Below, in pieces: positions 22,596-48,769 of a stretch of DNA of 48,885 nucleotides. Both the position numbers and the translations under genes were made by a program. The first letter of the stretch is position 1; each line of letters begins with the position of its first letter. The stretch lies in UHGV virus genome UHGV-0858861. The stretch is one strand, 5' to 3'. The notes beneath the pieces were generated by a model. That model saw nothing but the letters and a program-made list of their open reading frames with translations. It searched no databases and had not been told where the DNA came from. The stretch is from a virus.

Positions 22596-22725
22596 CTGGA
22601 GTTAGGCCAGTAGTATGATGCTCGCAAAACGAGATCCAATTTAGATCCTTTTACTGGTGGATTATCGTTCGATCAGTGAGAGACTTCGTGCATGACCGAA
22701 AGTGTTGTGGTAGAGTTCTCTTAAA

Positions 22726-23879: not shown

Positions 23880-24180
23880 CAGGCATCGGCTAATAAAGTT
23901 ATCCACAGTTTTGATATGTATATGCAAATGGTTTTTTATAATAGATGCACTAAACAAATAAATGCAAAATCACTTTCTTTTATTAAGACTTTCTTTATTT
24001 AACTTACGCAGGCTTTGCCTGTGAATATGTTCGCCCTTGCAGCGAGCTAAAGCTCGCGCCGGTTCGAGTCGCTACGCTCAAATATACCTCCTCCGGCACT
24101 TGCCGGAGGCATGGAGCAGCCTGATCATCCTTTTCGAAACGGCACGTTTCGAACTATACAAAATCAATTTATATAAGGCC
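23880..24180. promoter_or_regulatory. candidate replication origin region (DnaA box, AT-rich stretch, hairpin cluster)
   Basis: Consensus DnaA box TTATCCACA at 23899-23907 followed by AT-rich DNA and four perfect hairpins (GCGAGC-TAAA-GCTCGC; CTCCGGCA-CT-TGCCGGAG; TTCGAAACG-GCA-CGTTTCGAA; AGGCC-N7-GGCCT). Confidence 0.35.
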
Positions 24181-26410: not shown

Positions 26411-26440
26411 ACACAATGCGCAAAGTGTCATTTTGACACT

Positions 26441-26746
26441 TTGCGAGTGTTAATATTGTGCGAGGAGGATGCTATGACGGGTTATGAATTGAAATTATGG
26501 CGTCGTGGGATGAACTGGACGCAGGAGCGAGCCGCCGAAGAATTTGGGATATCGTTGGCTACATATAAGCGATATGAGAAGGGGGAGCCGCCGAGGGTCA
26601 TTGAGATGGCCATTCGCGTTCTGTCGTTTGACGATATGGTGAAGGATCTTTCACACCTTGATAAAGACGCGATTCTGTTAAGGCTGCAAACCCTTGTATG
26701 GGAAAAGGTTAAAGTGTCGTCAGAATTGGAACAAGGGATCAAATGA
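26441..26746 (+). CDS. HTH regulator, Aca2/YdiL (DUF1870)-like
   Basis: Probable start at 26474 (MTGYELKLWRRGMNWTQERAAEEFGISLATYKRYEKGEPPRVIE...), pattern closely resembling YdiL/Aca2-family N-termini as recalled; last gene of a short operon. Confidence 0.45.
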   Translation: MRVLILCEEDAMTGYELKLWRRGMNWTQERAAEEFGISLATYKRYEKGEPPRVIEMAIRVLSFDDMVKDLSHLDKDAILLRLQTLVWEKVKVSSELEQGIK

Positions 26747-26794
26747 TCCTTTACGGATCGTTTTATGGTGGTGTAATGTAAGCGCCAGAAAGAC

Positions 26795-26820
26795 AAAAAC
26801 CGCCTTGCCGGGCGGTTTTC
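26795..26820. terminator. bidirectional-looking rho-independent terminator
   Basis: A-run, hairpin CCGCC-TTGCCG-GGCGG, T-run. Confidence 0.55.
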
Positions 26821-27304
26821 AGTCTGAAATTTAAATCTTGCTTGGTAGGCTGGATTTAAAAAGACACCTCTTGATTGGGGCGGCTTTCTTGCGTCTAAAG
26901 ATAATCAAATCTTTTTGCGCCTGCAACCCCTTTTTTACTGGTGCCTGTTTCAGACTCACGCTCGCGTCGTTGTCTTTGCCACTTCGTTGGGTTCGGTGTT
27001 TTTGGGCGGAGTGGCGCGCGGGTATGCGTACAAGGGGAAAGTGTGCTGACGCAAGCCAGGAACAGCGATCTAAACTAAGTCGAGTCTGAGAAAGGCAGGA
27101 GTGCGACAACTCGCCTGTGCTCAATGAGCAGAAGAAGGTATATCAGACGACCAATGGCATGATTGTGGGCCACAGGGCGCACACGGCGGCGAAGCATTGG
27201 AAACGATGTGGAGCTATCTGGTGGCATGAGTTCCGGTACTCGATCTCGAGCTTTTTTTGATGCTTTTGAGAAGGGGCCGGAACTCCGGTAAAGGGCACCC
27301 TGTA

Positions 27305-27320
27305 TGGGGGGAGGGGGGGT
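27305..27320. repeat. poly-G tract (G6-A-G7) upstream of membrane-protein gene
   Basis: Sequence GGGGGGAGGGGGGG about 60 bp upstream of the ATG at 27382. Confidence 0.8.
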
Positions 27321-27381
27321 TGTGTCTAAAGGAAGATCTAATACGATATTGCTTTACCCTTATATCTAAAAGGAGATTTCT

Positions 27382-28017
27382 ATGGGGATGCTGGTGGCGT
27401 TTATTATTAGCCTGATTTTGTGTTTCTTCGTAGTTCGTGGCGCATATCGGAAACAATGTGCCTCGTCTTCTGGTGGTAAGTTCAAAGCTGTTTTAGTGAG
27501 TGGCTTTCTCGGGATTGCTACTTTTGTAGTTGTTAATACTCTTGCGGCTGTGACCTTGATCCCAGAAGACCCCAACACTGCGGCTACTACCGGAGCAGCT
27601 TTTGATGGTGTGACCGTAGATAAGTTTAAGCAGTTATATAATGATGACCTTGAAGGTATCGCTACATCAGGAAAATCCACCTCCACTATAAGAATTAAGT
27701 CAGTTAAACAAGGTAACAACACCGTTGAATTTGCCATCAATTCATCTGTTAACGGTCGGGCTAGAGTTGATAAGGATGGGAAGATTTCAGAGTTATTATG
27801 GCGAGTATCTAAGCCTAGCTCTGATTCCTTGCTTTCTATGGCCGTAGCTGTTGAAGTCTTGGATGCATCAAGTGATAGAGACACAGTGATCGCGCAGTTA
27901 GAGCAGATTGTTAAATCTGATACGCAGAAAGCTGAGTTTAAGACTAAGAGAGGCGAGTATTACGTTTCTCGTGACAAATCAGGGCACGTGTCGCTACTGA
28001 TTACACCGAAATATTAA
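27382..28017 (+). CDS. membrane protein with two N-terminal TM helices and a soluble domain (candidate exclusion/abortive-infection-type function)
   Basis: 211-aa ORF; hydrophobic segments at about residues 3-20 and 35-57; good SD (AAGGAG) upstream. Confidence 0.45.
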   Translation: MGMLVAFIISLILCFFVVRGAYRKQCASSSGGKFKAVLVSGFLGIATFVVVNTLAAVTLIPEDPNTAATTGAAFDGVTVDKFKQLYNDDLEGIATSGKSTSTIRIKSVKQGNNTVEFAINSSVNGRARVDKDGKISELLWRVSKPSSDSLLSMAVAVEVLDASSDRDTVIAQLEQIVKSDTQKAEFKTKRGEYYVSRDKSGHVSLLITPKY

Positions 28018-28026
28018 GAATTGAAG

Positions 28027-28053
28027 AAGCGCCCAAATCGGGCGCTTTGTTTT
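28027..28053. terminator. bidirectional terminator between convergent genes
   Basis: Hairpin GCGCCC-AAATC-GGGCGC flanked by A-rich and T-rich runs. Confidence 0.55.
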
Positions 28054-29194
28054 ATGGTTTTGCACCTGCGGCCAGTTTATCCGCAGATATCTTTATCAGT
28101 TCCTGTAGTGTCCTGGCTGGTAGGTTTGCATCCAGAACGCTGAGTATGCTGTTGTGATCCGCCTGGTCGACTACTTTGCCTGTCGGTGGTAGTAGCTTGA
28201 GCTGAGGATTCAGGTCCTCGTCAAAGCTGATAAGTGCTCTGGCGTTCCTGAGCAGATCAAGAAGTAAGGCTGATATCACATTTTCCTGAGTCATTGCTGG
28301 CAGATTTAGCGCCGCTTTGGTTTTCCCTGTTGCCTTGTCAAACTCCTTGATTAGTTCCTTCCTGTAGTTCGGTTCCGTTAATAGCCGATTATGCTCTGTT
28401 GCCGCGCGGATAATCGTTTTTTCCTGGTACAGTCGTTTAGCCAGATCTCGCTCGTACTGTGTTTTTAACACGCTGCTGATAGCGTTAAAGGCTTCAATGT
28501 AGGCCAGCTTGATATCCTTCACGCCTGGACCGTCGATACTTTCCATGAGCAAGGTAAATCCGTCTTTTGTCATGCGATATATTGTTATTTCGCGGTCGCT
28601 TCCTTCCAGCGGTCGTTGTTCTTTAAAGAAGTGACGCGCCGCAGCCGTGCGAGGAATGCGTAACGCATCGATGGCCATAACGATGGAATTGTTTGTGGTG
28701 CTGAATGCCTGAGCAACATCGGCTGAGGTTGTGAGTGGCTCGTTGTTGCACACCTTAATGTAAAACATCGGTTTGGCGTTGAGCGTATCGACAACCTCAC
28801 GAGCATTGTTTGGCGAGACGGTAACGGTCGCGGCCGTTTGCGCGTTCTGGTTGAAATAGCAGTCTTCCAGCCGTTCGAACACATCCCACGCTTGGTTAGT
28901 TTCAAGCATTTTGGCGTGACGTGCAGCCCCGCGTTCTGTCCAGAGAATTAGGGAGCGGGCATTTTTACCAACTAACCCGATTGTTTCGGGTCTGTTCTTG
29001 AACTCGCGTAATTCGTTTTTTTCAATTTTAAAGTAATGCTTTCCGGCTACGAATCGCGTCGTGTTGTTCAGAAAGTTATCAGAAATGTTTTTGATTTTTG
29101 TTCCGTATAACTGCGCCAGAAGTTCACTAGTGATAACGGGGATCTGGTTATGCAGGATAGGCTGTAGGGTGTTAACGGTCGGAAGCGTTTTCAT
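28052..29194 (-). CDS. antirepressor-like regulatory protein (ORF6N-like N-terminus + Rha-like domain)
   Basis: 380-aa ORF; architecture of phage antirepressor/Rha regulators; coupled to a small upstream ORF. Confidence 0.6.
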   Translation of the reverse strand: MKTLPTVNTLQPILHNQIPVITSELLAQLYGTKIKNISDNFLNNTTRFVAGKHYFKIEKNELREFKNRPETIGLVGKNARSLILWTERGAARHAKMLETNQAWDVFERLEDCYFNQNAQTAATVTVSPNNAREVVDTLNAKPMFYIKVCNNEPLTTSADVAQAFSTTNNSIVMAIDALRIPRTAAARHFFKEQRPLEGSDREITIYRMTKDGFTLLMESIDGPGVKDIKLAYIEAFNAISSVLKTQYERDLAKRLYQEKTIIRAATEHNRLLTEPNYRKELIKEFDKATGKTKAALNLPAMTQENVISALLLDLLRNARALISFDEDLNPQLKLLPPTGKVVDQADHNSILSVLDANLPARTLQELIKISADKLAAGAKP

Positions 29195-29382
29195 TTTGCA
29201 CCTCCCATAACTACTTTGGTTACGAGGGAGATTTTTGCGTCAGAAACAGCGTTATCGTTGCTGGCGATGCGCATAGCTTCGCGCTCGATGATTTCAGCCA
29301 GGCGTAATTTATCGGCGTATGAGGCTTTCTTGAGAAGGAGCTTTACGAGGTTGACGTAATAGTCATGGGGTAAGTTTGTCAT
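29191..29382 (-). CDS. small protein in icd-like position upstream of antirepressor
   Basis: 63-aa ORF whose stop overlaps the antirepressor start; SD AAGGGA upstream. Confidence 0.4.
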   Translation of the reverse strand: MTNLPHDYYVNLVKLLLKKASYADKLRLAEIIEREAMRIASNDNAVSDAKISLVTKVVMGGAK

Positions 29383-29439
29383 TGTGATGATTCCCTTAAA
29401 GGTTAAGGATACTCACCACCGTCAGGTTCCAATCATTGG

Positions 29440-29570
29440 GTGGTGAGACGTGCAGGGTTGGAACTACCGGACACAATGACGAACCGGCGAGTCTTACGAC
29501 TCCCCCGCACGCCCCACCATAATTTGGGGGTAGCAGTGCTTTACGCATAAAAAAACCGCTAACGCGGTAT
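29440..29570 (-). ncRNA. candidate c4-like antisense RNA region of an immI-like locus
   Basis: Minus-strand leader carries two hairpin-loop copies of GAUUGGAACC (29424-29433 and 29590-29599) flanking a segment with the complementary GGUAGUUCCAACC (29455-29470), plus a minus-strand terminator hairpin near 29550-29570. Confidence 0.3.
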
Positions 29571-29680
29571 GCGCCATTGTGTCTACGGGGTTCCAATCCC
29601 GGCCGTAGATTTTGCTACGGCTCGGAAAGTGTCCACCAATGGCGCATTCATGTCAATACGGCGGGATTTTAACAGACTAA

Positions 29681-30418: not shown

Positions 30419-30744
30419 CGTGCTGATCGGATTCGCGGTCCTTTCAGCATAACGTCGTTGTACTAATACAACCACGCAAGCACAAACAGCAACTACATTC
30501 TTACCCAACTGAGGTGAATAGTCCACTATTCATATAAAAAAATTTAGCTCATTAGCTCATGCAAAATGAAGGTTTTTAACTTATTTACGTGTAATCTTAT
30601 GTAATAAAAGCGTTTTTTATTCCTTCATTATGAAGGGTATGACGTGTAATATGGCTTGGGGCCTTTCCGCCGATTCGCACCCGGGCACTGACTTTCAGGA
30701 AAGGATTATCCACTTGCCGTACCACGCAGGCACAAACAGCGTGC

Positions 30745-30927
30745 TTGCTCTCGCGTCATTTTCGTCGGTGGGGATGCCGTGAAACGGCCTGTAAGGGCCA
30801 CACAATGAAAAAATACTACATGTGTATTTTTATCGTTGTTACTGGAGCTTTGTTTACGCCACATGGGGAGGGTTGGAAGATTACTGATAACGCTCTGAAT
30901 GTGACGATAAACATTAGCAGCAAGTAG
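30745..30927 (+). CDS. small hydrophobic peptide (about 40 aa from the ATG at 30805)
   Basis: MKKYYMCIFIVVTGALFT... with one predicted TM helix, SD AAGGG upstream, strong terminator immediately downstream. Confidence 0.3.
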   Translation: MLSRHFRRWGCRETACKGHTMKKYYMCIFIVVTGALFTPHGEGWKITDNALNVTINISSK

Positions 30928-30932
30928 CGATT

Positions 30933-30956
30933 AGGCCCCTTCGGGGGCCTTTTTTA
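30933..30956 (+). terminator. strong rho-independent terminator
   Basis: Hairpin AGGCCCC-TTCG-GGGGCCT followed by TTTTTT. Confidence 0.7.
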
Positions 30957-36091: not shown

Positions 36092-37159
36092 ATGAATAAA
36101 CAAGTAATTATTTCTGACTGGATCAACAACCCTAACAGCCTGTTAAGCACTGATACTGGCTACCTATTACGCCATGTTAATGGTCGTATGGTCAAAAGCG
36201 ATGAGCACGAAACCTTTTTCTTTGTTGAAGATGATGGGCGTATCTATGAGGATGGTTACTCTTATGAAGCCCAAACTGGTTGTATCCCTGCGGAGCTGGT
36301 GGACGTAACAGAAGATCTGCGCAAAGCATGGCTTGAACAGCAGCAGCGCGGAGATGATTACGTAAACACCTATCAGGAACGCCAGAACGCGCGTCTTGCC
36401 CGATATATTGCTCGTGCAGAAAAAGCCAGAAAAGAAGGTGCGGTAGCGCATAAGCGAGCGCATGACCTGTTGGATGTGATCCCGTTAGGCCAGCCGATTT
36501 TAGTTGACCATTATAGCGCGAAAGGCCATCGCCGCCGTTTGTCTAAAGCTGATGCGTTATTAAGAAAAGCGTTTGTTGAATGCGAAAGTAAAGCATCACA
36601 CTACGAGAGCAAAGCCGCAGGTGTTGGTCGTAATGGAATTTCGTCTGATGATCCTGATGCGCTATTTAAGTTGCTTCGTAAGCTGCAAGGCTGCATGAAG
36701 TCACACGTCAAAATGAAGGCCGCAAATAAGGCCATTCGCAAATACAAAAAAGACCAATTACAGCAGCTTTCTGCATTAATCGATCTCAGGTTTACAGAAA
36801 GCGAAGCCAAAGAGTTACTGGTCGGAGATTTCTGTGGGCGCATCGGATTCCCTTCATACGTACTGAGCAACAATAACGCCGAGATCAAACGACTACAGAG
36901 CCGTATTAAGGAGCTTGAATCGGTCAAGTCTGTAACAGGAGCACAGCGCGAAGAATACGACGACTTTTCTATGGAGATAGATCCAGAGGATAACCGCATC
37001 CTGTTTTATTTCCCTGGCAAACCAGAGGCAAACATTCGTTCGCTGCTTAAATCACGCGCCTTTAAGTGGAGTCCAACCCGTAATGCATGGGTTCGCAAGA
37101 TTACTCCAAATGCCCTGGCTGATGCCCGATATCTGAAAGAATCGCTATTGAAAGCCTGA
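36092..37159 (+). CDS. hypothetical protein with DUF3560-like C-terminus (candidate early/anti-defence protein)
   Basis: 355-aa ORF directly behind module copy 2; C-terminal motif ILFYFPGKPEANIRSLLKSRAFKWSPTRNAWVRK. Confidence 0.4.
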   Translation: MNKQVIISDWINNPNSLLSTDTGYLLRHVNGRMVKSDEHETFFFVEDDGRIYEDGYSYEAQTGCIPAELVDVTEDLRKAWLEQQQRGDDYVNTYQERQNARLARYIARAEKARKEGAVAHKRAHDLLDVIPLGQPILVDHYSAKGHRRRLSKADALLRKAFVECESKASHYESKAAGVGRNGISSDDPDALFKLLRKLQGCMKSHVKMKAANKAIRKYKKDQLQQLSALIDLRFTESEAKELLVGDFCGRIGFPSYVLSNNNAEIKRLQSRIKELESVKSVTGAQREEYDDFSMEIDPEDNRILFYFPGKPEANIRSLLKSRAFKWSPTRNAWVRKITPNALADARYLKESLLKA

Positions 37160-41302: not shown

Positions 41303-41698
41303 ATGTCAGCAGAACCAATTTCCGGTACGGCCGTTGCTGCTGGTGGCCTGATGGGTGCCAGCGTTTTTGGTATTGCAACTGGTATTGATTACGGCGTTGT
41401 ATTCGGGGCATTTGCTGGCGCTGTTTTCTATGTTGCTACAGCGGTGAATATTAGCCGTCTCAAGCTGATTGGCTATTTCTTTACATCGTTCATTGTTGGA
41501 GTGATTGGAGCGCCGTTAGTTGGCTCATTTCTTGCCAAATGGACCAGCTACAACGATCGTCCTCTGGATGCGCTTGGTGCGGTTATTGTGGCTGCATTGA
41601 CCATTAAAATCCTCACGTTCGTAAACAGCCAGGATCTCGGTAGCATCTTTGGAATGCTTTCCCGCTTACGTGGAGGGGGTTCAAATGGTAAGCAGTGA
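41303..41698 (+). CDS. holin-like membrane protein
   Basis: 131-aa ORF with multiple hydrophobic helices, first gene of the lysis cluster. Confidence 0.45.
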   Translation: MSAEPISGTAVAAGGLMGASVFGIATGIDYGVVFGAFAGAVFYVATAVNISRLKLIGYFFTSFIVGVIGAPLVGSFLAKWTSYNDRPLDALGAVIVAALTIKILTFVNSQDLGSIFGMLSRLRGGGSNGKQ

Positions 41699-41981
41699 CC
41701 CGTCAGCACTGATTAATGCGGTGCTTTGCACAGTAATAGTAATGGCGCTGATGCTTTATCGACGGAAAGACTCCAGGCATCGTCCATTTGTTTCCTTTCT
41801 GGCTTATATCTACGTCATTGTATACGCCAATGTTCCCTTCCGTTATGTGTTCGGTCTTTATCAAGAATCCCACTGGCTGGTGGTTATTGGAAATCTGATT
41901 ATCTGCATCGTTGTTCTGTATTTCAGGGGCAATCTGGCGCGGATAGTTGACGCATTAGGATTTAATCATGACCAAAGATGA
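41649..41981 (+). CDS. second small membrane protein (holin/antiholin-like)
   Basis: ORF (probable start 41688) with 2-3 TM segments, overlapping the endolysin start. Confidence 0.4.
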   Translation: MECFPAYVEGVQMVSSDPSALINAVLCTVIVMALMLYRRKDSRHRPFVSFLAYIYVIVYANVPFRYVFGLYQESHWLVVIGNLIICIVVLYFRGNLARIVDALGFNHDQR

Positions 41982-42510
41982 GATTTTTAACAGCATTCTT
42001 GGAAAAGAGGGCGGTTATGTTGATCACCCTGACGACAAGGGAGGCCCAACAATGTGGGGCATCACTCAGAATACTGCCCGTGCTCACGGATACCGTGGCG
42101 ATATGCGAGATCTGACGCGAGAACAGGCTCTGATGATTCTTGAAGGTGATTATTGGTATGGGCCTCGTTTTGACCAGGTGGCGCAATTTTCCCCTGATAT
42201 TGCGGCTGAGATGTGCGATACGGGCGTCAACATGGGGCCGACTGTGGCTACGAAGATGCTTCAACGTTGGCTGAATGTTTTCAACCGTGGCGGGAAGTTG
42301 TATCCAGATATGGATGTGGATGGGCGAATCGGCCCGCGCACCATTGCGGCATTACGTGCTTATCTTGGGAATCGGGGAAAAGACGGCGAACGGGTAATGC
42401 TGACGGCCCTTAACTGTACGCAGGGCGACCGTTATCTGGACCTGGCGGAGAAACGCGAAGCAAATGAGTCGTTTGTCTATGGCTGGATGAAAGAGCGAGT
42501 GGTGGTATGA
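41968..42510 (+). CDS. endolysin (GH108-like catalytic domain + peptidoglycan-binding domain)
   Basis: 180-aa ORF; N-terminal GKEGGYVDHPDDKGGPTMWGIT motif typical of GH108 lysozymes. Confidence 0.75.
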   Translation: MTKDEIFNSILGKEGGYVDHPDDKGGPTMWGITQNTARAHGYRGDMRDLTREQALMILEGDYWYGPRFDQVAQFSPDIAAEMCDTGVNMGPTVATKMLQRWLNVFNRGGKLYPDMDVDGRIGPRTIAALRAYLGNRGKDGERVMLTALNCTQGDRYLDLAEKREANESFVYGWMKERVVV

Positions 42511-42785
42511 CTGGTTTGAAAGCCGTTTTGTCATTTATCGGCACCATTATATTGGTTGCATTCGGCGCATTTGGTTTTGGTCGTATGAAGGGGCGAGAAA
42601 AGGCCGAAGATGAAGCTGAAAAGCAGCGCATTAATGAGAATGCAGCCGCCGTAAAAGCCACTGCGGAGCGGCGTATAGAAGTGACAAAAGAGGTGGGGAA
42701 TGTACAGCAGAGTGTTAACCATATGGCTGATGACGATGTTGATCGCGAGCTGCGGGAGTCGTGGAAGCGTCCCGGTGGTGGTTGA
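42507..42785 (+). CDS. i-spanin (Rz-like)
   Basis: 92-aa ORF with N-terminal TM helix and charged coiled-coil region, directly after endolysin. Confidence 0.55.
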   Translation: MTGLKAVLSFIGTIILVAFGAFGFGRMKGREKAEDEAEKQRINENAAAVKATAERRIEVTKEVGNVQQSVNHMADDDVDRELRESWKRPGGG

Positions 42786-42909
42786 TACCGCCTGTGATTG
42801 GGTAAAGCCCATCTACCTGACTGATCACGATATCGATGTTATGGACCGCCAGACAAAGAAAGATATTCTGGCTCATAACAGGGCATGGGAAATCAACTGC
42901 CTCAAGTAA
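42700..42909 (+). CDS. o-spanin lipoprotein (Rz1-like), partly embedded in the Rz-like frame
   Basis: 69-aa ORF in alternate frame with lipobox-like LIASC. Confidence 0.45.
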   Translation: MYSRVLTIWLMTMLIASCGSRGSVPVVVDTACDWVKPIYLTDHDIDVMDRQTKKDILAHNRAWEINCLK

Positions 42910-43078
42910 TATATATTTCTATAATTATATAAATATATAGTTACAACATTCTATGCGCTTTTCTCATGAGCGCACGCATCAACCATGTTTGTCTGATATG
43001 CCGCCGCGCCCAAAAATCCTGAATTTATTGGCTGGGATTTTCGTGCGCGGCGCCACACCAGACAAACAGATCAAATAT

Positions 43079-43154
43079 GGCCCCTTAGCTCAGTGGTTAG
43101 AGCAGGCGACTCATAATCGCACGGTCATCGGTTCAAATCCGGTAGGGGCCACCA
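43079..43154 (+). tRNA. tRNA with CAU anticodon (elongator-type; ileX-like tRNA-Ile2 or tRNA-Met)
   Basis: 76-nt cloverleaf folded by hand: 7-bp acceptor stem (GGCCCCT/AGGGGCC), D-arm GCTCAGTGGTTAGAGC, anticodon loop CTCATAA, T-loop TTCAAAT, discriminator A and encoded CCA; 1:72 G-C pair excludes initiator type. Confidence 0.85.
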
Positions 43155-43462
43155 ATTCACTCTCACACATAAAGATAAGCGCGGTGGAGTTACTTCCTTC
43201 GTGCTCATCTTTATGCGTGCCTGGTGCGCATTTCGGGCGAACGTGGGGCTAAGTTACAGGCAGGGCCTGTTATCCGCAAAGGGGTAAAAGCTGGAGCGGC
43301 GCGGAACTGTAGCCGTGTTACCAAAACAGCGTTGTCGGGCGATATCCGGCACACAACAGGCAAGGGCATTAATCAGTCTGGTTAGTGCCCTTTTCGTTGT
43401 GTTTGCTGTAGGGCTGGCCAGCGTTATGACTGCCGGAGATAAGCGCCGGAGGCACAACTAAC

Positions 43463-44050
43463 ATGGAGGCAATTGCATTGTTTAATCTGATTTATGCAGA
43501 TCCCCCCTGGGAATACAAAGACAAGTGTAAGGATGGGAATCGTGGCGCTGGTTTTAAGTATCCAACGATGAAAGCTGAGGAGATTGCTCGTATTCCTGTC
43601 TGGCAGCTTGCTAATCCTGAATCGTGTTTGTTGGCCATGTGGTGGGTTCCGACTCAGCCAGAAGAAGCGTTGCTGGTGGTGAAAGCATGGGGATTCAGGC
43701 TGATGACCATGAAGGGCTTCACATGGAACAAATGTGGTAGCCGACAACCAGATAAGCTGGTGATGGGGATGGGGCATATGACTCGTGCAAACAGTGAAGA
43801 TTGCTTGTTTGCAGTGAAAGGCAAACTACCGACACGTCTTGATGCGGGGATCATTCAGTCGTTTACATCGCCTCGTCTGGAGCATTCTCGGAAGCCTGAT
43901 GTGGTCCGTGACAAGCTGGTAAGGCTGTTAGGTGATGTTCCTCGTATTGAGCTGTTTGCTCGCGGTGATTTACCTGATGGCTGGCATGGCTGGGGCAACC
44001 AGTGCAATGGAGGTATCCAATTGCATGATGCTCTCTGGCAAGTGTCATAG
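43463..44050 (+). CDS. MT-A70-family DNA N6-adenine methyltransferase
   Basis: 195-aa ORF with the catalytic DPPW motif (IYADPPWEY). Confidence 0.75.
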   Translation: MEAIALFNLIYADPPWEYKDKCKDGNRGAGFKYPTMKAEEIARIPVWQLANPESCLLAMWWVPTQPEEALLVVKAWGFRLMTMKGFTWNKCGSRQPDKLVMGMGHMTRANSEDCLFAVKGKLPTRLDAGIIQSFTSPRLEHSRKPDVVRDKLVRLLGDVPRIELFARGDLPDGWHGWGNQCNGGIQLHDALWQVS

Positions 44051-44162
44051 AATTATATAATTATATATTTATATAAAAAGTGCTTTACAGGTGGGAAAAA
44101 ATTTCCTAAGGTTATACCCGGAACCGAGCGATACCCGCCCTGGTTAAACCGGAGATAACCCG
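44044..44162 (+). promoter_or_regulatory. conserved promoter + 5' leader module, copy 3
   Basis: Near-identical to copies 1 and 2 (one substitution in the leader); ATG at 44163. Confidence 0.55.
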
Positions 44163-44432
44163 ATGAAAGTACAAGACCGTGAAGTAGTAAAAAACCTCCT
44201 GCAATACCTGACCTCAAAAAATCTGACTGGCAGCGTTGAGTTCCGTGAAGCGTTAAAACATTTCAACGTCACTACGGTTTATCGTTGGGAAAACAAACAT
44301 TCTGAAAGACCGTATGTGGTGGATGTTTTTGCGCCTGATATTGAGTGCGGTTTTGAGCGCCATTCATTCAAAAAGAAACATTCCGCTGATGTTTTTTGTG
44401 AGGTTGTATGTGCGGCAGGAGATGATGAGTGA
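44163..44432 (+). CDS. hypothetical protein, first gene behind module copy 3
   Basis: 89-aa ORF, no recognisable motif. Confidence 0.35.
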   Translation: MKVQDREVVKNLLQYLTSKNLTGSVEFREALKHFNVTTVYRWENKHSERPYVVDVFAPDIECGFERHSFKKKHSADVFCEVVCAAGDDE

Positions 44433-44629
44433 TGCGTATTTCCTTCAAACGTGCGACTGAGCAGCAACGTAAAGAGTTCCTGGCTGATGATGTTGCGGCC
44501 GTTTATGACCTCATGAAAGAGGTTGTGGAATCAGGGAACTACACGGCGGCAAAGATGCTTAAACTGCAATTCTTGCTGGGCGACCTGAAATACAAATCCG
44601 AAGTTGTCGCCGGACGACGCGAGCATTAA
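44429..44629 (+). CDS. hypothetical protein
   Basis: 66-aa coupled ORF; terminator-like hairpin follows at about 44652-44680. Confidence 0.3.
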   Translation: MMRISFKRATEQQRKEFLADDVAAVYDLMKEVVESGNYTAAKMLKLQFLLGDLKYKSEVVAGRREH

Positions 44630-44703
44630 ACCGTAACGATAACGAACAACGAGCCTCGGCAATTGCCGGGGCTTTTTTACATCCAGACAAAGGAGAACAT
44701 GGG

Positions 44704-45003
44704 ATGCCTTCGACAAGCACCAAAAAAGAAATGGCGATTAGTGATGTGCTTTACGCGCTTTCGATTATGTGTGACGGAGCAATGATGAGGATGAAAGTCC
44801 TCCATGAAGCATACGGAAAAAGTCACGATGAGGCAGCTAAAGAGTGCCTGAATGAGATTGTGGACTTCATTGATAGCCATCGTTCAGTTATATCGCGTCA
44901 ACCGACAGCGTCGTCCATCACGATTAGCGCACCGGTTATCAATATATCAGTAACTGCGGCGTGTAAATCAGCAGCGGAAGATGATCGTGCTTATGCCGAG
45001 TGA
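44704..45003 (+). CDS. hypothetical protein
   Basis: 99-aa ORF. Confidence 0.3.
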   Translation: MPSTSTKKEMAISDVLYALSIMCDGAMMRMKVLHEAYGKSHDEAAKECLNEIVDFIDSHRSVISRQPTASSITISAPVINISVTAACKSAAEDDRAYAE

Positions 45004-45193
45004 TTTGTTCTGGTTTCCGCTTCCAATAAGAGATTTGTTGGTATTTCTGGCTGGCGCTTACGTCTGGAGAAAAGCGAAAGACACCTCGTTATCTTTGAGG
45101 TTTGTCTTAGCTATATCGGTAGGAACCGCGCTGGGGACGGCGTATCTCTTGACATTACTGGAGATATTCATTGAAGAATGGATAGTTTCATGA
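44981..45193 (+). CDS. small membrane protein
   Basis: 70-aa ORF with hydrophobic segments. Confidence 0.3.
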   Translation: MIVLMPSDLFWFPLPIRDLLVFLAGAYVWRKAKDTSLSLRFVLAISVGTALGTAYLLTLLEIFIEEWIVS

Positions 45194-45342
45194 ATGGTGT
45201 TGGCATTTTTCTGATGGTTGTGGCCGTGTGTTTTTGTATCTCGCTGGTGGTTATCGCTGGTGTCCTGTGGCGCATCTTAGTGGCGCAGAGAGCTTTTCGG
45301 CGTAAGCGGGAGCAATTGCGCCTTGATTTCTATCGAAAGTAA
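45190..45342 (+). CDS. small membrane protein (50 aa, below the ORF-track cutoff)
   Basis: MNGVGIFLMVVAVCFCISLVVIAGVLWRIL... followed by terminator hairpin at 45351-45378. Confidence 0.25.
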   Translation: MNGVGIFLMVVAVCFCISLVVIAGVLWRILVAQRAFRRKREQLRLDFYRK

Positions 45343-45802
45343 CTCTTACAGCCTCGCGGTGTCGCGGGGCTTTTTATTTTCAGGTGATGTTATGGAAAAG
45401 AAAGAAGATAAACCGATTGCCATTGGTGCAGATGCTGTTCCGTTTAAGTTTGAATTATCCCAACTGGTAACAATGCGTATCAGTGACGAATGGGGAGAAG
45501 TTAAAGCCCGTGCTCAGTATGCAAATGGCGAAAACCAGTATCTGATTCACTATCAGGCGGCTGATGGCCGTGCTACCACAGAGTGGTTCGGTGAGTCGAT
45601 GCTGATTGCGATGGAAGATGATCGTTATCCTGGCTGCCCTGTTTTTGCCTGTGTTGATTTGCCAGAAGGCGCGGTACTTGAAGACGACAAAGAAGAATGC
45701 TCGTCTGATGGCGAACTTGTCATTACTGGAATCGTTGATGGTAAGCCGGAATACTCTCGTATTGAGGTAAATAACGGCTGCCTCCGTTTGATCCCTGCGT
45801 AA
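45323..45802 (+). CDS. hypothetical protein
   Basis: ORF (probable start 45392, MEKKEDKP...); terminator-like hairpin CATTAACTCCA...TGGAGTTAATG at 45865-45894 downstream. Confidence 0.35.
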   Translation: MISIESNSYSLAVSRGFLFSGDVMEKKEDKPIAIGADAVPFKFELSQLVTMRISDEWGEVKARAQYANGENQYLIHYQAADGRATTEWFGESMLIAMEDDRYPGCPVFACVDLPEGAVLEDDKEECSSDGELVITGIVDGKPEYSRIEVNNGCLRLIPA

Positions 45803-46036
45803 CGCATTACAGCAGCTCTTGTGCCTATCAGGGGCTGCGATAATGCGCAAACCAAAGCTGCCTCATTAACTCCAGCTCGCTGTGGAGTTAATGCTGGTGG
45901 CTTTTTTATTACTGGAAGGTGGGCGACCGCCGTCAGTTGCGACCTGACGACAGTCATTCATACCCACAGGGTGCCGTGGATACAAACCGAGGCCCACTTG
46001 CTTGCACAAGCGAGGGGATTTTAGCGGATAAACGGC

Positions 46037-46660
46037 ATGACAAAACATCTTAATGTGGTTTCTTTACCACTTTCTGTGTTGATTGGTTATGAAAAGAACG
46101 CTCGCACACACTCCGTGGAGCAGGTAGATCAGATTGTTGCCAGCATACAGGAGTACGGATGGACTAATCCGATCCTGATAGACGAGAACAACGTTGTAAT
46201 TGCTGGTCATGGTCGAATTGCTGCGGCCACTCAGTTGGGGATGGATGACGTTCCCTGCATTGTTCTGGAAGGGCTAACGGAGAATCAGAAGAAGGCATAT
46301 CGTCTGGCCGACAACCGTATTCCGCTGAATGCTGGTTGGGATGAAGAGTTGTTAAGCGCGGAGCTTGCAGATCTTGCGGCCGATGATTTTGCTCTGGACT
46401 CAATTGGTTTTACTCAGCGCGAACTGGATAACTTATTGAGTGCGGCGGTCTACGATGACACAGAGGGTATGGATATCCCATTTGAGAAGGATGAGGCCAA
46501 ATCAGGCGTAAAAGTTCAGTACCTGTCATTTGGAGGTCATAAAATCCCGGCAACGGATGAGGAAGCGGATCGTTTTGACTGCGCGGTGTCTCGTTATGTT
46601 GATGATAATGGCAGCTATATCGGATTTGTATCCGCATTGCTGGCTGGGGAGGTGTGCTGA
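46037..46660 (+). CDS. ParB-like nuclease-domain protein (paralogue of 301-891)
   Basis: 207-aa ORF sharing the ParB N-terminal-like core (NPILIDENNVVIAGHGRIAAA...QKKAYRLADN...NAGWD) with the ORF at 301. Confidence 0.65.
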   Translation: MTKHLNVVSLPLSVLIGYEKNARTHSVEQVDQIVASIQEYGWTNPILIDENNVVIAGHGRIAAATQLGMDDVPCIVLEGLTENQKKAYRLADNRIPLNAGWDEELLSAELADLAADDFALDSIGFTQRELDNLLSAAVYDDTEGMDIPFEKDEAKSGVKVQYLSFGGHKIPATDEEADRFDCAVSRYVDDNGSYIGFVSALLAGEVC

Positions 46661-48033
46661 TGCTTCACCTCAATTACGACATAACGCACCTACGCGGCGC
46701 GGAATATAACCCGCGTTTTATCGGTGAGGATGATCTTGCGAGGCTGGCAGAAAGCGTCAGGGAGCTGGGGCTTGTGAAGCCATTGATAGTGCGCGGCGAT
46801 TTGCTGGTGGCGGGACACCAAAGGACGAAGGCGCTACGTAAGTTGGGAATAACGCGTGCTGCGGTGTATGTGTTGCCCTGTGAAACGACGGTATACGACG
46901 AAGTACGGTTTAACCAACTGCATAACGGAACGGATTTTGATAGCGGAGATGAGCGTTGCAGGGTGTCCGGTCTGGAAGATAAGCATGGTTTTGTTCAGGT
47001 ATCGGCAAGCCAGATTTCAGGCAATATGCGCGCGAAAATGGCATATGTTCGAAAGAACATAGCGGAACTGGTTATCAAGTATGGTCCGTGGGGTGGTTGT
47101 GTTGCTACGCAGTCTGGCGAGGTTATTCACTGTGCTCAGTATGCATTAGCAGCGAAGATGACGCGCACACCGCTAACGGTGTTTGTGATCCCTGATGTTG
47201 AGAAGGAAAAATACCAAAGTTATCTGAATAAAACTTATGGTGTATTTGAGTATTCTCATCTGGAGAAAACAACATACATCCAGACGTATGCGCAGCTTAT
47301 GCGGTTGCGTAATGGTGGCAGCCTGAAATCAAACCTGTATGAGTCGTTGATCCTCCCGATCATTGCCAAGACGCCAAGAGGAATTGATTTTGGTTCGGGG
47401 CAGGGAGACTACGCGCGAATGCTCAGGGCAAAGGGATATAACCTGCATGATCTCGAGCTTTTCCGCCGTAAGGGCGCTGGAAACACTCTGGATAGGACCG
47501 CAACAAACCGGATGATTGATACGCTGGTGGACGACTTAAAAACGCGAGGGCGTTACGACTACGTGATTTGCGATAGCGTTTTGAACTCGGTCGATAGTGT
47601 CGAGGCTGAATGGTCTGTTCTGACGGTTCTGAAAGGCCTGTGTAAAGCTGGTGGGTCAATATTCTTTTCTGGTCGTAGCCGTGGAGAGCTGGAAACAGTC
47701 CTGAAGCAAACACAAGCGGCGAGTTCCAAAAGCCGGCTTTATTTTATTGATCATAACGGTTTTACCGCGTTGTACCGGAAGGGGCACTGGTTTTACCAGA
47801 AGTTTCACTCTGATGATGAAGTGAAGCAGTTGTGTCGTGTACATGGTTTCAGGATTAAGCGGTCAATATTCAACTGTAAGAGCTGGTATTTGCACGTCAT
47901 TAACGATGATTCCCTTAGTTGGGCGAGTCTGGAGAAAGCTGTTCGTTTTGAGTTTGAGTTGCCGTTGCCTGGTGGTTCAACAATCGGACGATCTGATGAT
48001 GTGCTGGCGGCTTTCCGGCCGTTGATTAAGTAG
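46654..48033 (+). CDS. fusion protein: ParB N-terminal-like domain + class I SAM-dependent methyltransferase domain
   Basis: 459-aa ORF; N-terminal ParB-like segment (PLIVRGDLLVAGHQRTKALRKLG) and C-terminal Rossmann SAM motif (GIDFGSGQGDY); no DPPY/NPPY-type motif seen. Confidence 0.6.
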   Translation: MLMLHLNYDITHLRGAEYNPRFIGEDDLARLAESVRELGLVKPLIVRGDLLVAGHQRTKALRKLGITRAAVYVLPCETTVYDEVRFNQLHNGTDFDSGDERCRVSGLEDKHGFVQVSASQISGNMRAKMAYVRKNIAELVIKYGPWGGCVATQSGEVIHCAQYALAAKMTRTPLTVFVIPDVEKEKYQSYLNKTYGVFEYSHLEKTTYIQTYAQLMRLRNGGSLKSNLYESLILPIIAKTPRGIDFGSGQGDYARMLRAKGYNLHDLELFRRKGAGNTLDRTATNRMIDTLVDDLKTRGRYDYVICDSVLNSVDSVEAEWSVLTVLKGLCKAGGSIFFSGRSRGELETVLKQTQAASSKSRLYFIDHNGFTALYRKGHWFYQKFHSDDEVKQLCRVHGFRIKRSIFNCKSWYLHVINDDSLSWASLEKAVRFEFELPLPGGSTIGRSDDVLAAFRPLIK

Positions 48034-48049
48034 TGTGTAGGAGGCGCTG

Positions 48050-48769
48050 GTGGCTGACAGAATTGAGATAAAGATGGATTTTTCTTCTCAGGATATTCAA
48101 CGACAACTCCAGCGCCTTGAAGAACGCGAATTGCCGTTCGCAATGGCGCTTGCGGCAACCAGAACGGCAAAGGCTTCTCAGGCTGCGATTAAGAATGAAA
48201 TTAATCGGGTATTTGACAGGCCCACGCCGTGGATTCAGAACTCTACTTACGTTTTGGCCGCAAAGAAGAGTGATCCTACAGCCATTGTGTATGCTCGTGA
48301 ATGGGGAGGAACGCCAGCCCCTGTAACGTTGACTCCGCAAATCGAAGGTGGCCAACGACAGTACAAACGCTCAGAAGGGGCGCTAAGGGCTGGTGGATAT
48401 TTGCCTAACGGCTGGCAGCTTGCTCCTGGTCCCGGCGCAAAGCTGGACAAATACGGGAATATTTCGCGGGGGCAATTACAGCAGGTCTTATCTGGCCTAA
48501 GAGTTCAGCGAGATGCGCATCAAAATCGCCGTCAGGGCAAGCCTACGGAGTTTTTTGTTGTTCGACCTGGTACAAGTAACCCGCTTCAACCAGGCGTCTG
48601 GCAGCGCGTTGGGCGGCGTCCTACGTTGATCCTTACGTTTATCCAGCAACCTAACTATTCGCAGCGTCTTGATTGGCATGGCGTGGCGCTGCGTGCTGGT
48701 GAGGATGCGTTTGCTGATGAAGTCACAAAGGCTATTGATGACATTCTTTCTAAGACCTTCTCTCGTTAA
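48050..48769 (+). CDS. hypothetical phage protein
   Basis: 239-aa ORF; function not assignable from sequence. Confidence 0.35.
   Translation: MADRIEIKMDFSSQDIQRQLQRLEERELPFAMALAATRTAKASQAAIKNEINRVFDRPTPWIQNSTYVLAAKKSDPTAIVYAREWGGTPAPVTLTPQIEGGQRQYKRSEGALRAGGYLPNGWQLAPGPGAKLDKYGNISRGQLQQVLSGLRVQRDAHQNRRQGKPTEFFVVRPGTSNPLQPGVWQRVGRRPTLILTFIQQPNYSQRLDWHGVALRAGEDAFADEVTKAIDDILSKTFSR

Follow-up and report, generated by a model that had tools for sequence, protein, structure and literature searches.

A structured non-coding locus in a family of enterobacterial phage-plasmids probably derives from a ColE1-type replication origin

Introduction

Replication origins of the ColE1 type are commonly found co-integrated in larger replicons, where they often go unnoticed, and whether they fire there is an open question (PMC8683028). 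RNA-based origins have also been described for the prophages of the mycobacteriophages RedRock and Alma (PMC7157519), and in human mitochondrial DNA a primer transcript is ended by a hybrid G-quadruplex or R-loop at CSB II, a conserved sequence block of which G6AG7 is one allele (PMC5027508, PMC4176368). Here we describe a non-coding locus in the virus genome UHGV-0858861, a stretch of 48,885 nucleotides that was analyzed as a whole and is referred to below as the window. The window is a circular phage-plasmid of the 'p-p47' family, and positions are those of this stretch unless another sequence is named.

The p-p47 family was described in a 2026 preprint as a new family of phage-plasmids, under which CP032086 is listed, and as a carrier of beta-lactamase heteroresistance via copy-number increase; in the plasmid state its members replicate with an IncFII-type RepA under CopA/CopT control at 1.2-2.6 copies per cell (bioRxiv 10.64898/2026.08.19.745698). 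The 560-bp locus that concerns us here is not mentioned in that preprint (bioRxiv 10.64898/2026.08.19.745698). Family members include CP032086 and the 48-kb plasmid of Escherichia coli ATCC 25922, and the RepA encoded in the window at 22777-23757 matches Pfam IncFII_repA. Plasmids from 72 complete E. coli genomes carry the locus with 95% identity or more, three Yersinia phages with 99% or more, and three Salmonella plasmids with 85-89%. Standard replicon typing misses the locus; the authors of the preprint and the typing tools recognize the RepA replicon only.

We conclude that the locus is a real, functional non-coding element that has been missed by annotation, replicon typing and BLAST. It very probably descended from a ColE1-type origin, and we favor the reading, with a probability of roughly 0.6, that it is a complete but much diverged ColE1-type origin unit (26735-27332) still working as an RNA-primed origin.

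Results

Similarity to the RNA II of ColE1-type plasmids

Because the layout of the locus is that of RNA II and RNA I, we fetched ColE1 and CloDF13 and located their RNA I. A covariance model (R1) built from nine ColE1-family plasmids only, which covers the final 141 nt of RNA II before the origin, was run over both strands of 109 kb of sequence. There were exactly six matches, all of them to the phage-plasmid element, full length and on the plus strand, with scores of 44, 34.7, 34.7, 32.1, 30 and 23.2 bits and E-values from 2e-9 to 4e-4. In the window copy the match lies at 27161-27296 (23.2-23.3 bits, E 2-4e-4), and the runner-up with filters off scores 14.7 bits. The reciprocal model (R3), for which only p-p47 copies were used, matches ColE1 at its positions 1065-1199 (22.4 bits, E 5e-4), as well as CloDF13, on the strand of its RNA II, and six other loci of ColE1 type, in the homologous place and on the homologous strand. 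Every one of these matches ends at the known origin, the ColE1 match at 1199 corresponding to RNA II +555-557, and none was obtained from decoy loci. Weaker, independent support came from a nucleotide profile of nine ColE1-family origins, which, searched with nhmmer, gave a weak, colinear similarity within the element only, and from global alignment of the locus to the RNA II of ColE1 and of CloDF13, which scored higher than every one of 293 real-sequence controls (z 4.4 and 3.8).

The predicted folds of the two RNAs are parallel: in ColE1 as in the locus, a hairpin with a GGAAAC loop comes first, and a long hairpin whose loop is UUUUUNUGAUGCU comes second. The long hairpin is closed by an inverted repeat to which the first-pass annotation, made from the letters of the window and its open reading frames (ORFs), had drawn attention; the repeat is real, with arms GAGTTCCGG and CCGGAACTC at 27228-27236 and 27277-27285, one base off the 27229-27287 originally given. 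The pair GAGTTCCGG/CCGGAACTC matches GGUUUCGCC/GGCGGAGCC in ColE1, and thus forms the hairpin that precedes the ColE1 origin. The putative switch from RNA to DNA, at about 27290, is placed by the alignment only, at a model end that is unpaired and weakly similar. Since neither a model of the middle domain nor the Rfam RNAI model found anything above noise in the locus (see below), homology is demonstrated for the origin-proximal domain only, and the remainder of the comparison is one of layout.

A conserved block without coding capacity

The region between the upstream helix-turn-helix (HTH) gene and the membrane-protein gene orf211 had been described as ORF-poor, GC-richer and rich in hairpins, and all three descriptions hold. 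Only short ORFs occur on either strand, none of them pairs a Shine-Dalgarno site with a hydrophobic product, and substitutions in the region have no codon periodicity. Between the E. coli and Salmonella copies the substitutions in the locus are spread over the three phases as 21/27/19 (p=0.46), with a transition to transversion ratio of 45:22 and three indel columns, whereas the four flanking genes and orf211 have a strong third-position bias in the same comparison (p 2e-4 to 1e-13). GC content is 51.9% in the locus against 44.9% in the whole window. The minimum free energy of the plus strand of 26790-27340 is -204.8 kcal/mol (z -2.9 relative to shuffles), lower than that of any of 121 sampled windows of the same length (551 nt) across the element; after correction for GC content the z-score is just -1.6, which is mildly unusual, and the minus-strand fold is unremarkable once corrected in the same way.

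The span given in the first-pass annotation, 26820-27381, is indeed ORF-poor, but the conserved unit is 26747-27332, since segment identities, computed between the window and one Salmonella copy, fall outside these limits (Table 1). The block is the best-conserved stretch of its neighborhood, at 87-92% identity compared with 65-79% for the flanking genes, and it runs from the -35 element of a predicted promoter to 12 nt past the G tract. We found no repeats or targets of the locus elsewhere in the element, and no repeats or iterons within it. Strong purifying selection acts on the locus, which does not code for protein.

Table 1. Features of the locus in the window and identity of neighborhood segments between the window and one Salmonella copy.
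Feature	Position	Strand	Identity	Remarks
Palindrome GGGATCAAATGATCC and third GATC	26735..26759	.		GATC at 26737, 26745, 26756; overlaps sense -35
Predicted sigma-70 promoter	26750..26778	+		-35 TTTACG 26750-26755; -10 TGTAAT/TAATGT 26772-26778; spacer 16/17
RNA II-like pre-primer RNA, predicted	26784..27296	+		~510 nt to position aligned with ColE1 origin
Three stem-loops	26791..26887	+		SL1 26791-26825 (core 26796-26819), SL2 26830-26860, SL3 ~26860-26887
RNA I-like countertranscript, predicted	26788..26926	-		~100 nt, three stem-loops, start ~26891
Countertranscript promoter, predicted	26926-26898	-		TTGCAG-17-TATCTT; hexamers invariant
Intrinsic terminator, predicted	26821-26794	-		followed by UUUUUGUCUUUCU
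Peripheral hairpin	26978..27015	+		strongest covariation, 5 pairs altered on both sides
Nearly invariant core GGGTATGCGTACAAGGGGAAAGTGTGCTGACGCAAGCCAGGAACAGC	27019..27084	+		
Origin-proximal domain homologous to ColE1 RNA II	27161..27296	+		R1, R3, parallel folds
GGAAAC-loop hairpin	27194-27209	+		within origin-proximal domain
Long hairpin, U-rich loop UUUUUUUGAUGCU	27228-27285	+		closed by inverted repeat of first-pass annotation
Position aligned with ColE1 RNA-to-DNA switch	27288..27293	+		GGUAAAGGG here, GGAAAAACG in ColE1
G6-A-G7	27306..27319	+		RNA-like strand, 14-29 nt past aligned origin position
Last conserved bases TTGTGTCTNAAGG	27320..27332	+		right end of block; cargo differs beyond
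Non-coding block			87%	
First 40 bp of block (promoter)	26747-26786		92.5%	
higB			78.5%	
higA			78.7%	
HTH gene			68.9%	
orf126			67.2%	
Intergenic just past 27328			59.3%	
orf211			65.4%	

Covariation and RNA structure on the plus strand

A structured non-coding RNA had been one of two candidates proposed for the region, and this one is borne out: the plus strand carries a conserved and covarying structure, whose 3' 136 nt share homology with the part of ColE1 RNA II next to the origin. RNAalifold, run on 8-22 distinct copies, predicts about 155 pairs which are almost never broken. In an alignment of 13 copies seven pairs are altered on both sides, compared with 3.4±1.2 in shuffles (none of 500 reached seven) and 0-2 in slid controls. 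Many of the pair changes are from G-U to A-U or G-C, and reading the same structure on the minus strand gives 572 non-canonical cells out of 3333, against 17 of 3333 on the plus strand. The best-supported helices are the peripheral hairpin and the GAAA-loop hairpin at 27194-27209, and the second stem-loop (SL2, 26830-60) covaries as well. The global fold shifts with the alignment used. A putative long-range pairing, which never varies, is predicted between C4U6 (26926-26939) and the G tract. In a loose pairwise alignment the nearly invariant core stands opposite the '-265' G-run region of ColE1, with no significant similarity there.

Rfam 15, which includes ROOL, GOLLD and RNAI and holds no RNA II model, gave nothing at gathering score and noise alone at E-values up to 10; permissive hits to RNAI, Phe-leader and similar families were driven by the terminator hairpin and were set aside. 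We also discarded a CsrB-like sponge (GGA motifs are not enriched), a target or decoy of C4-like or IsrK-like RNAs (there is no outlying duplex) and a GNRA-receptor motif, which was unsupported.

The 5' end

The predicted sense promoter has the best score (9.7) between 26650 and 27450 on both strands, carries a TG at 26769-26770 and has a predicted start at about 26784-26787. Its hexamers are invariant, variable bases being confined to the spacer. The palindrome GGGATCAAATGATCC overlapping the -35 element is unique in the window, belongs to the densest GATC cluster of the element and is invariant in all copies.

Downstream of the promoter, the three stem-loops carry 6-nt loops (UUGCCG in SL1, UUGGUA in SL2 and UUGAUU in SL3), whose sequences vary by lineage while the stems are retained, in SL2 through compensatory changes in four variants and in SL1 and SL3 with invariant stems. 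The hairpin at 26796-26819 had been taken for the terminator of the upstream gene. On the plus strand it is followed by just 3-4 U, whereas a long invariant U-run follows it on the minus strand, and it is therefore the better terminator on the minus strand. Tested as a counterpart of RNA I, the minus strand of this part has three stem-loops, variable loops and a good terminator, with a weakly predicted promoter and an RNAI model score of 18-20 bits; the fold of the predicted countertranscript has a z-score of -4.0.

The G6-A-G7 tract

The homopolymeric tract reported upstream of orf211 is present as G6 (27306-27311), A (27312) and G7 (27313-27319), 62 nt before the ATG at 27382, although the 27305-27320 originally assigned to it is one base too wide on each side. 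G6AG7 was found in 29 of 35 copies from E. coli, Salmonella, Yersinia-phage and metagenome sources. Only two copies depart from this length. One has G6AG6, and the other, which has G6AG8, disagrees with two further assemblies of the same strain (405); these one-G differences could be homopolymer sequencing errors. The remaining four variants are substitutions. No credible -35/-10 pair flanks the tract, and it is unchanged where the downstream gene differs or is absent with a terminator in its place. ColE1-type plasmids have no such tract at that place. Past the tract, a candidate DnaA box that agrees in 8 of 9 bases is not conserved and was rejected.

Distribution of the locus and search for distant relatives

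Searches for distant relatives with exact DNA patterns returned the same nine contigs with four patterns in IMG/VR and no match among GTDB species genomes. In metagenomes the patterns found 15 contigs, among which there were only three informative variants, here called L021, L025 and L030. The most divergent copy, L025 (258-749, minus strand), has the tract G6AG5TG and is without 50 nt that span the hairpin 26978-27015 and its flanks. A blastn search of PLSDB with the core, at E-values up to 5, found the same family only. When synteny was followed from orf126 or from the HTH protein upstream, unrelated plasmids and one Vibrio phage-plasmid came up. A 31-kb sequence considered as a deletion derivative is merely an incomplete contig.

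In the Vibrio campbellii phage-plasmid NZ_CP050481 (L036:6376-7230), a distant relative, an 850-bp gap lies past the orf126 homologue. This gap holds two copies of a module in which a terminator, tandem repeats of AAATAAAGA and a hairpin rich in GC are combined. The syntenic place is filled there in another, iteron-like way.

Genomic neighborhood

Past the conserved block, a cargo hotspot (27333-28050) extends to the antirepressor terminator. It carries the 211-aa membrane protein with two transmembrane segments (orf211) in the window and a 62-aa ORF in the ATCC 25922 plasmid, and in other copies the terminator hairpin follows directly; orf211 has no Pfam match. A P1-like immI module (29436-29621 and 28052-29382, both on the minus strand) converges on the locus and comprises two RNAs, isrK-like (70 bits) and C4 antisense (78 bits), together with a 63-aa ORF and an ORF6N/Rha antirepressor. 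The same accessory region holds an Rfam ryfA match (135 bits, 30657-30955, plus strand) that is likely a type I toxin-antitoxin-type locus.

On the other side, the 90-aa HTH gene (26474-26746) had been called Aca-like; its Pfam match is to a generic HTH_3 domain only. An 11-bp inverted repeat, GCAAAGTGTCA TTT TGACACTTTGC at 26420-26444, stands just before this gene and is probably its operator. Near repA, the only perfect DnaA box of the element (TTATCCACA, 23899-23907) lies about 140 bp past the IncFII-type gene and is likely to mark oriR, and a GATC cluster at 22633-22671 is found upstream of repA, where the preprint puts CopA/CopT. A tRNA with a CAT anticodon (43079-43154, plus strand) is called Met by ARAGORN and Rfam and tRNA-Ile in the RefSeq copies, on the assumption of lysidine modification.

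Discussion

A proposed mechanism and its weak points

The features described above can be arranged into a working model of RNA priming. Transcription from the GATC-overlapped promoter (26750-26778) would give rise to a plus-strand pre-primer RNA, the counterpart of RNA II, which does not code for protein and is about 510-550 nt long. Its first ~100 nt would form three stem-loops that are probably the target of a convergent ~100-nt counterpart of RNA I ending at 26821-26794. The last 136 nt (27161-27296) are predicted to fold like the ColE1 RNA II domain of the persistent RNA-DNA hybrid, and, by analogy, a cut in this hybrid near 27290 would be followed by its extension to the right by DNA polymerase I. 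The G6AG7 tract (27306-27319), with its G-rich RNA and C-rich template, would most likely stabilize the R-loop or stop the polymerase, like CSB II. As RepA/CopA sets the copy number of the plasmid state, the second origin probably has little or no activity in lysogeny and serves amplification, for example in lytic growth.

The positive GC skew and the presence of all 15 Chi sites on the plus strand fit rightward fork movement. There is no GC-skew switch at the locus, the skew being positive on the plus strand all round, even across minus-strand genes. The Chi sites (GCTGGTGG; e.g. 1134, 27390) compare with an expected 1.3±1.0 for the whole window; ten of them are clustered at 41.3-48.4 kb (41339-48396) and one is at the start of orf211. 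Function is favored by the very strong conservation and by the lack of an obvious other lytic replicon, as in the early operon we recognized no lytic initiator or helicase. A DUF3560 protein of this operon (36092-37159, plus strand), the C-terminal half of which matches a PHROG annotated as 'primase' (E 2e-35), is the only replication-like hint in it.

Several observations weigh against a working ColE1-type origin. Similarity to ColE1 is significant for the 3' domain only: blastn matched no ColE1-type plasmid, and the model of the middle domain (R2), which includes the G-run ~265 nt before the origin, found nothing above noise with filters on or off. The Rfam RNAI model reaches only noise level (18-20 bits) on the 5' part, and the antisense promoter is weak, with a score (7.6) that is common by chance. 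The window copy itself scores just 23 bits with R1, and the E-values of the model are rough. Two copies have lost parts of the RNA, L025 the 50-nt hairpin stretch and L030 (2429-2947, minus strand) 22 nt at ~27085-27106, the latter deletion being possibly an assembly error because the contig is of low coverage. As the sequence past the putative switch is not conserved, there is no conserved primosome assembly site. In addition, the changes in 14 out of 15 copy-up mutants lay in copA/copT of repA (bioRxiv 10.64898/2026.08.19.745698), and given these mutants and the low copy number, an active ColE1-type origin is not evident in lysogeny. Finally, the transcripts and their ends, the antisense RNA, the R-loop, priming, the role of the G tract and the time of firing are what we infer from the DNA.

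An extended version of the model is fairly unlikely as a whole, and we offer it tentatively. The element would carry two replicons, the IncFII origin, which maintains 1-3 copies in lysogeny, and an ancient, cryptic ColE1-type origin which is silenced in that state by the countertranscript and/or by a Dam- or repressor-sensitive promoter and fires in lytic or run-away replication, with the primer end set by G6AG7 via an R-loop or hybrid G-quadruplex and not by RNase H alone. If true, no earlier RNA-primed lytic origin would be known from an enterobacterial phage, and bacteria would have their own counterpart of the priming switch of mitochondria. The presence of a second, RNA-primed origin would also alter the view of copy number, of incompatibility with common ColE1-type plasmids and of lytic replication in the clinically relevant p-p47 family. 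It may explain the one copy-up mutant that maps to a regulator: mutant DA81419 has no repA or copA change and just a single-nucleotide polymorphism in a 'potential transcriptional regulator' (bioRxiv 10.64898/2026.08.19.745698).

Alternative explanations

The alternative that we take most seriously, while still doubting it, is that the locus is a co-opted relic of a ColE1 origin, that is, a structured RNA, perhaps with an R-loop, which does not prime replication and has a regulatory or structural role. It might control read-through into the cargo genes, which lack good promoters of their own, or favor recombination at the cargo hotspot through an R-loop, and cargo variation does start exactly at the right edge of the block. 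The low copy number under RepA/CopA (bioRxiv 10.64898/2026.08.19.745698) and the restriction of recognizable ColE1 likeness to the 3' domain agree with a relic. However, the unit from promoter to G tract, including parts that are sensible only for primer formation, is conserved above the neighboring genes, and the block is unchanged where no cargo gene follows. A trans-acting structured RNA of a new family (a sponge, an anti-defense decoy or an immunity regulator), whose likeness to RNA II is coincidental, would account for the strong conservation and covariation, for the lack of an Rfam match and for the many RNAs (C4, isrK, ryfA) of the accessory region around it. We consider it improbable, as the reciprocal covariance models match at the exact homologous place of ColE1-type origins, and neither enriched GGA motifs nor special complementarity to C4-like or IsrK-like RNAs or to the rest of the element was found.

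The remaining explanations are each very unlikely. The first-pass annotation had proposed, as its other candidate, a slipped-strand phase-variable promoter in which the length of the G tract switches the downstream membrane-protein gene. A 14-nt G-rich tract so close to an ATG, together with the one-G differences in 2 of 35 copies, speaks for such a switch, but the proposal is already largely refuted: the tract lies outside any promoter spacer, is kept with another downstream gene or with none, and is not a phase-variable promoter because it stands just past the origin position and is nearly invariant. Just as improbable is a site acting at the DNA level, such as a Xer/cer-like resolution, single-strand initiation, packaging or partition site. 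The sequence GCGTACAA in the invariant core agrees in 9 of 11 bases with the XerC arm of ColE1 cer, and strand-specific hairpins could form in single-stranded DNA too; yet the XerC-like arm stands alone, the XerD arm being absent (2 of 11 bases), so that a Xer/cer site was rejected. Moreover, there are no repeats or iterons, covariation that tolerates G-U pairs suits a transcript, as do the promoter and terminator signals, and the homology is to an RNA-coding domain. Least probable of all is a type I toxin-antitoxin locus or a decayed gene. The sense/antisense layout recalls hok/sok-type loci and the ryfA-like type I locus is 3 kb away, but no small hydrophobic ORF with a ribosome-binding site is conserved, indels break the frames between lineages, third-position bias is missing, and the locus is conserved above real genes nearby. 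A divergent ColE1-type origin unit that still primes replication remains the reading we prefer.

Comparison with known systems

With ColE1, pMB1 and CloDF13 the locus shares a predicted ORF-less sense RNA of ~510-550 nt, three 5' stem-loops and a putative convergent terminator, and its 5' end is arranged colinearly with that of ColE1. The ColE1 RNA II promoter likewise has a palindrome over its -35 element (AGGATC...GATCCTTT), its elements TTGAGA-17-TAATCT are to be compared with the -10 TAATGT of the locus, and in both an A-run, a hairpin and a U-run are found at the start of the RNA. The locus differs from ColE1-type origins in that similarity is below the reach of blastn, that neither the middle domain nor RNA I has a similarity that could be detected, and that the G6AG7 tract past the aligned origin is an addition. 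It also resides in a 48-kb phage-plasmid maintained at 1-3 copies by an IncFII RepA/CopA replicon, and neither rop nor mobilization genes were seen in the annotated stretches, no dedicated search having been made for them. The locus shows that ColE1 origins can diverge beyond the reach of BLAST and yet be detected by models that take structure into account, which bears on the open question of the function of ColE1 origins inside large replicons.

In being a ColE1-type origin beside another replicon in a larger element, missed by annotation, the locus resembles the co-integrates mentioned above, although those are recent, near-typical in their ColE1 sequence and often flanked by transposons (PMC8683028). 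The locus, in contrast, is ancient in its lineage, a core feature of the family that has diverged together with its E. coli and Salmonella variants, and has no flanking insertion sequence. RedRock and Alma are similar in combining an extrachromosomal prophage with a non-coding RNA region that initiates replication, but they lack repA, use the RNA for replication in the plasmid state, infect another host phylum and have no sequence relation to the locus (PMC7157519).

As in poly-G contingency loci, a G run precedes the gene of a surface or membrane protein; unlike in those loci, the length of the tract is essentially fixed, no promoter spacer contains it, and the gene is interchangeable or absent. 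The tract also resembles CSB II, which has the same G6AG7 on the non-template strand, past a promoter and at the handover from RNA to DNA (PMC5027508, PMC4176368). The polymerases differ and no homology is implied, the likeness being one of sequence and position only. A strictly conserved CSB II-like tract by the predicted primer end would make the locus a bacterial system in which G-tract-assisted primer formation can be studied.

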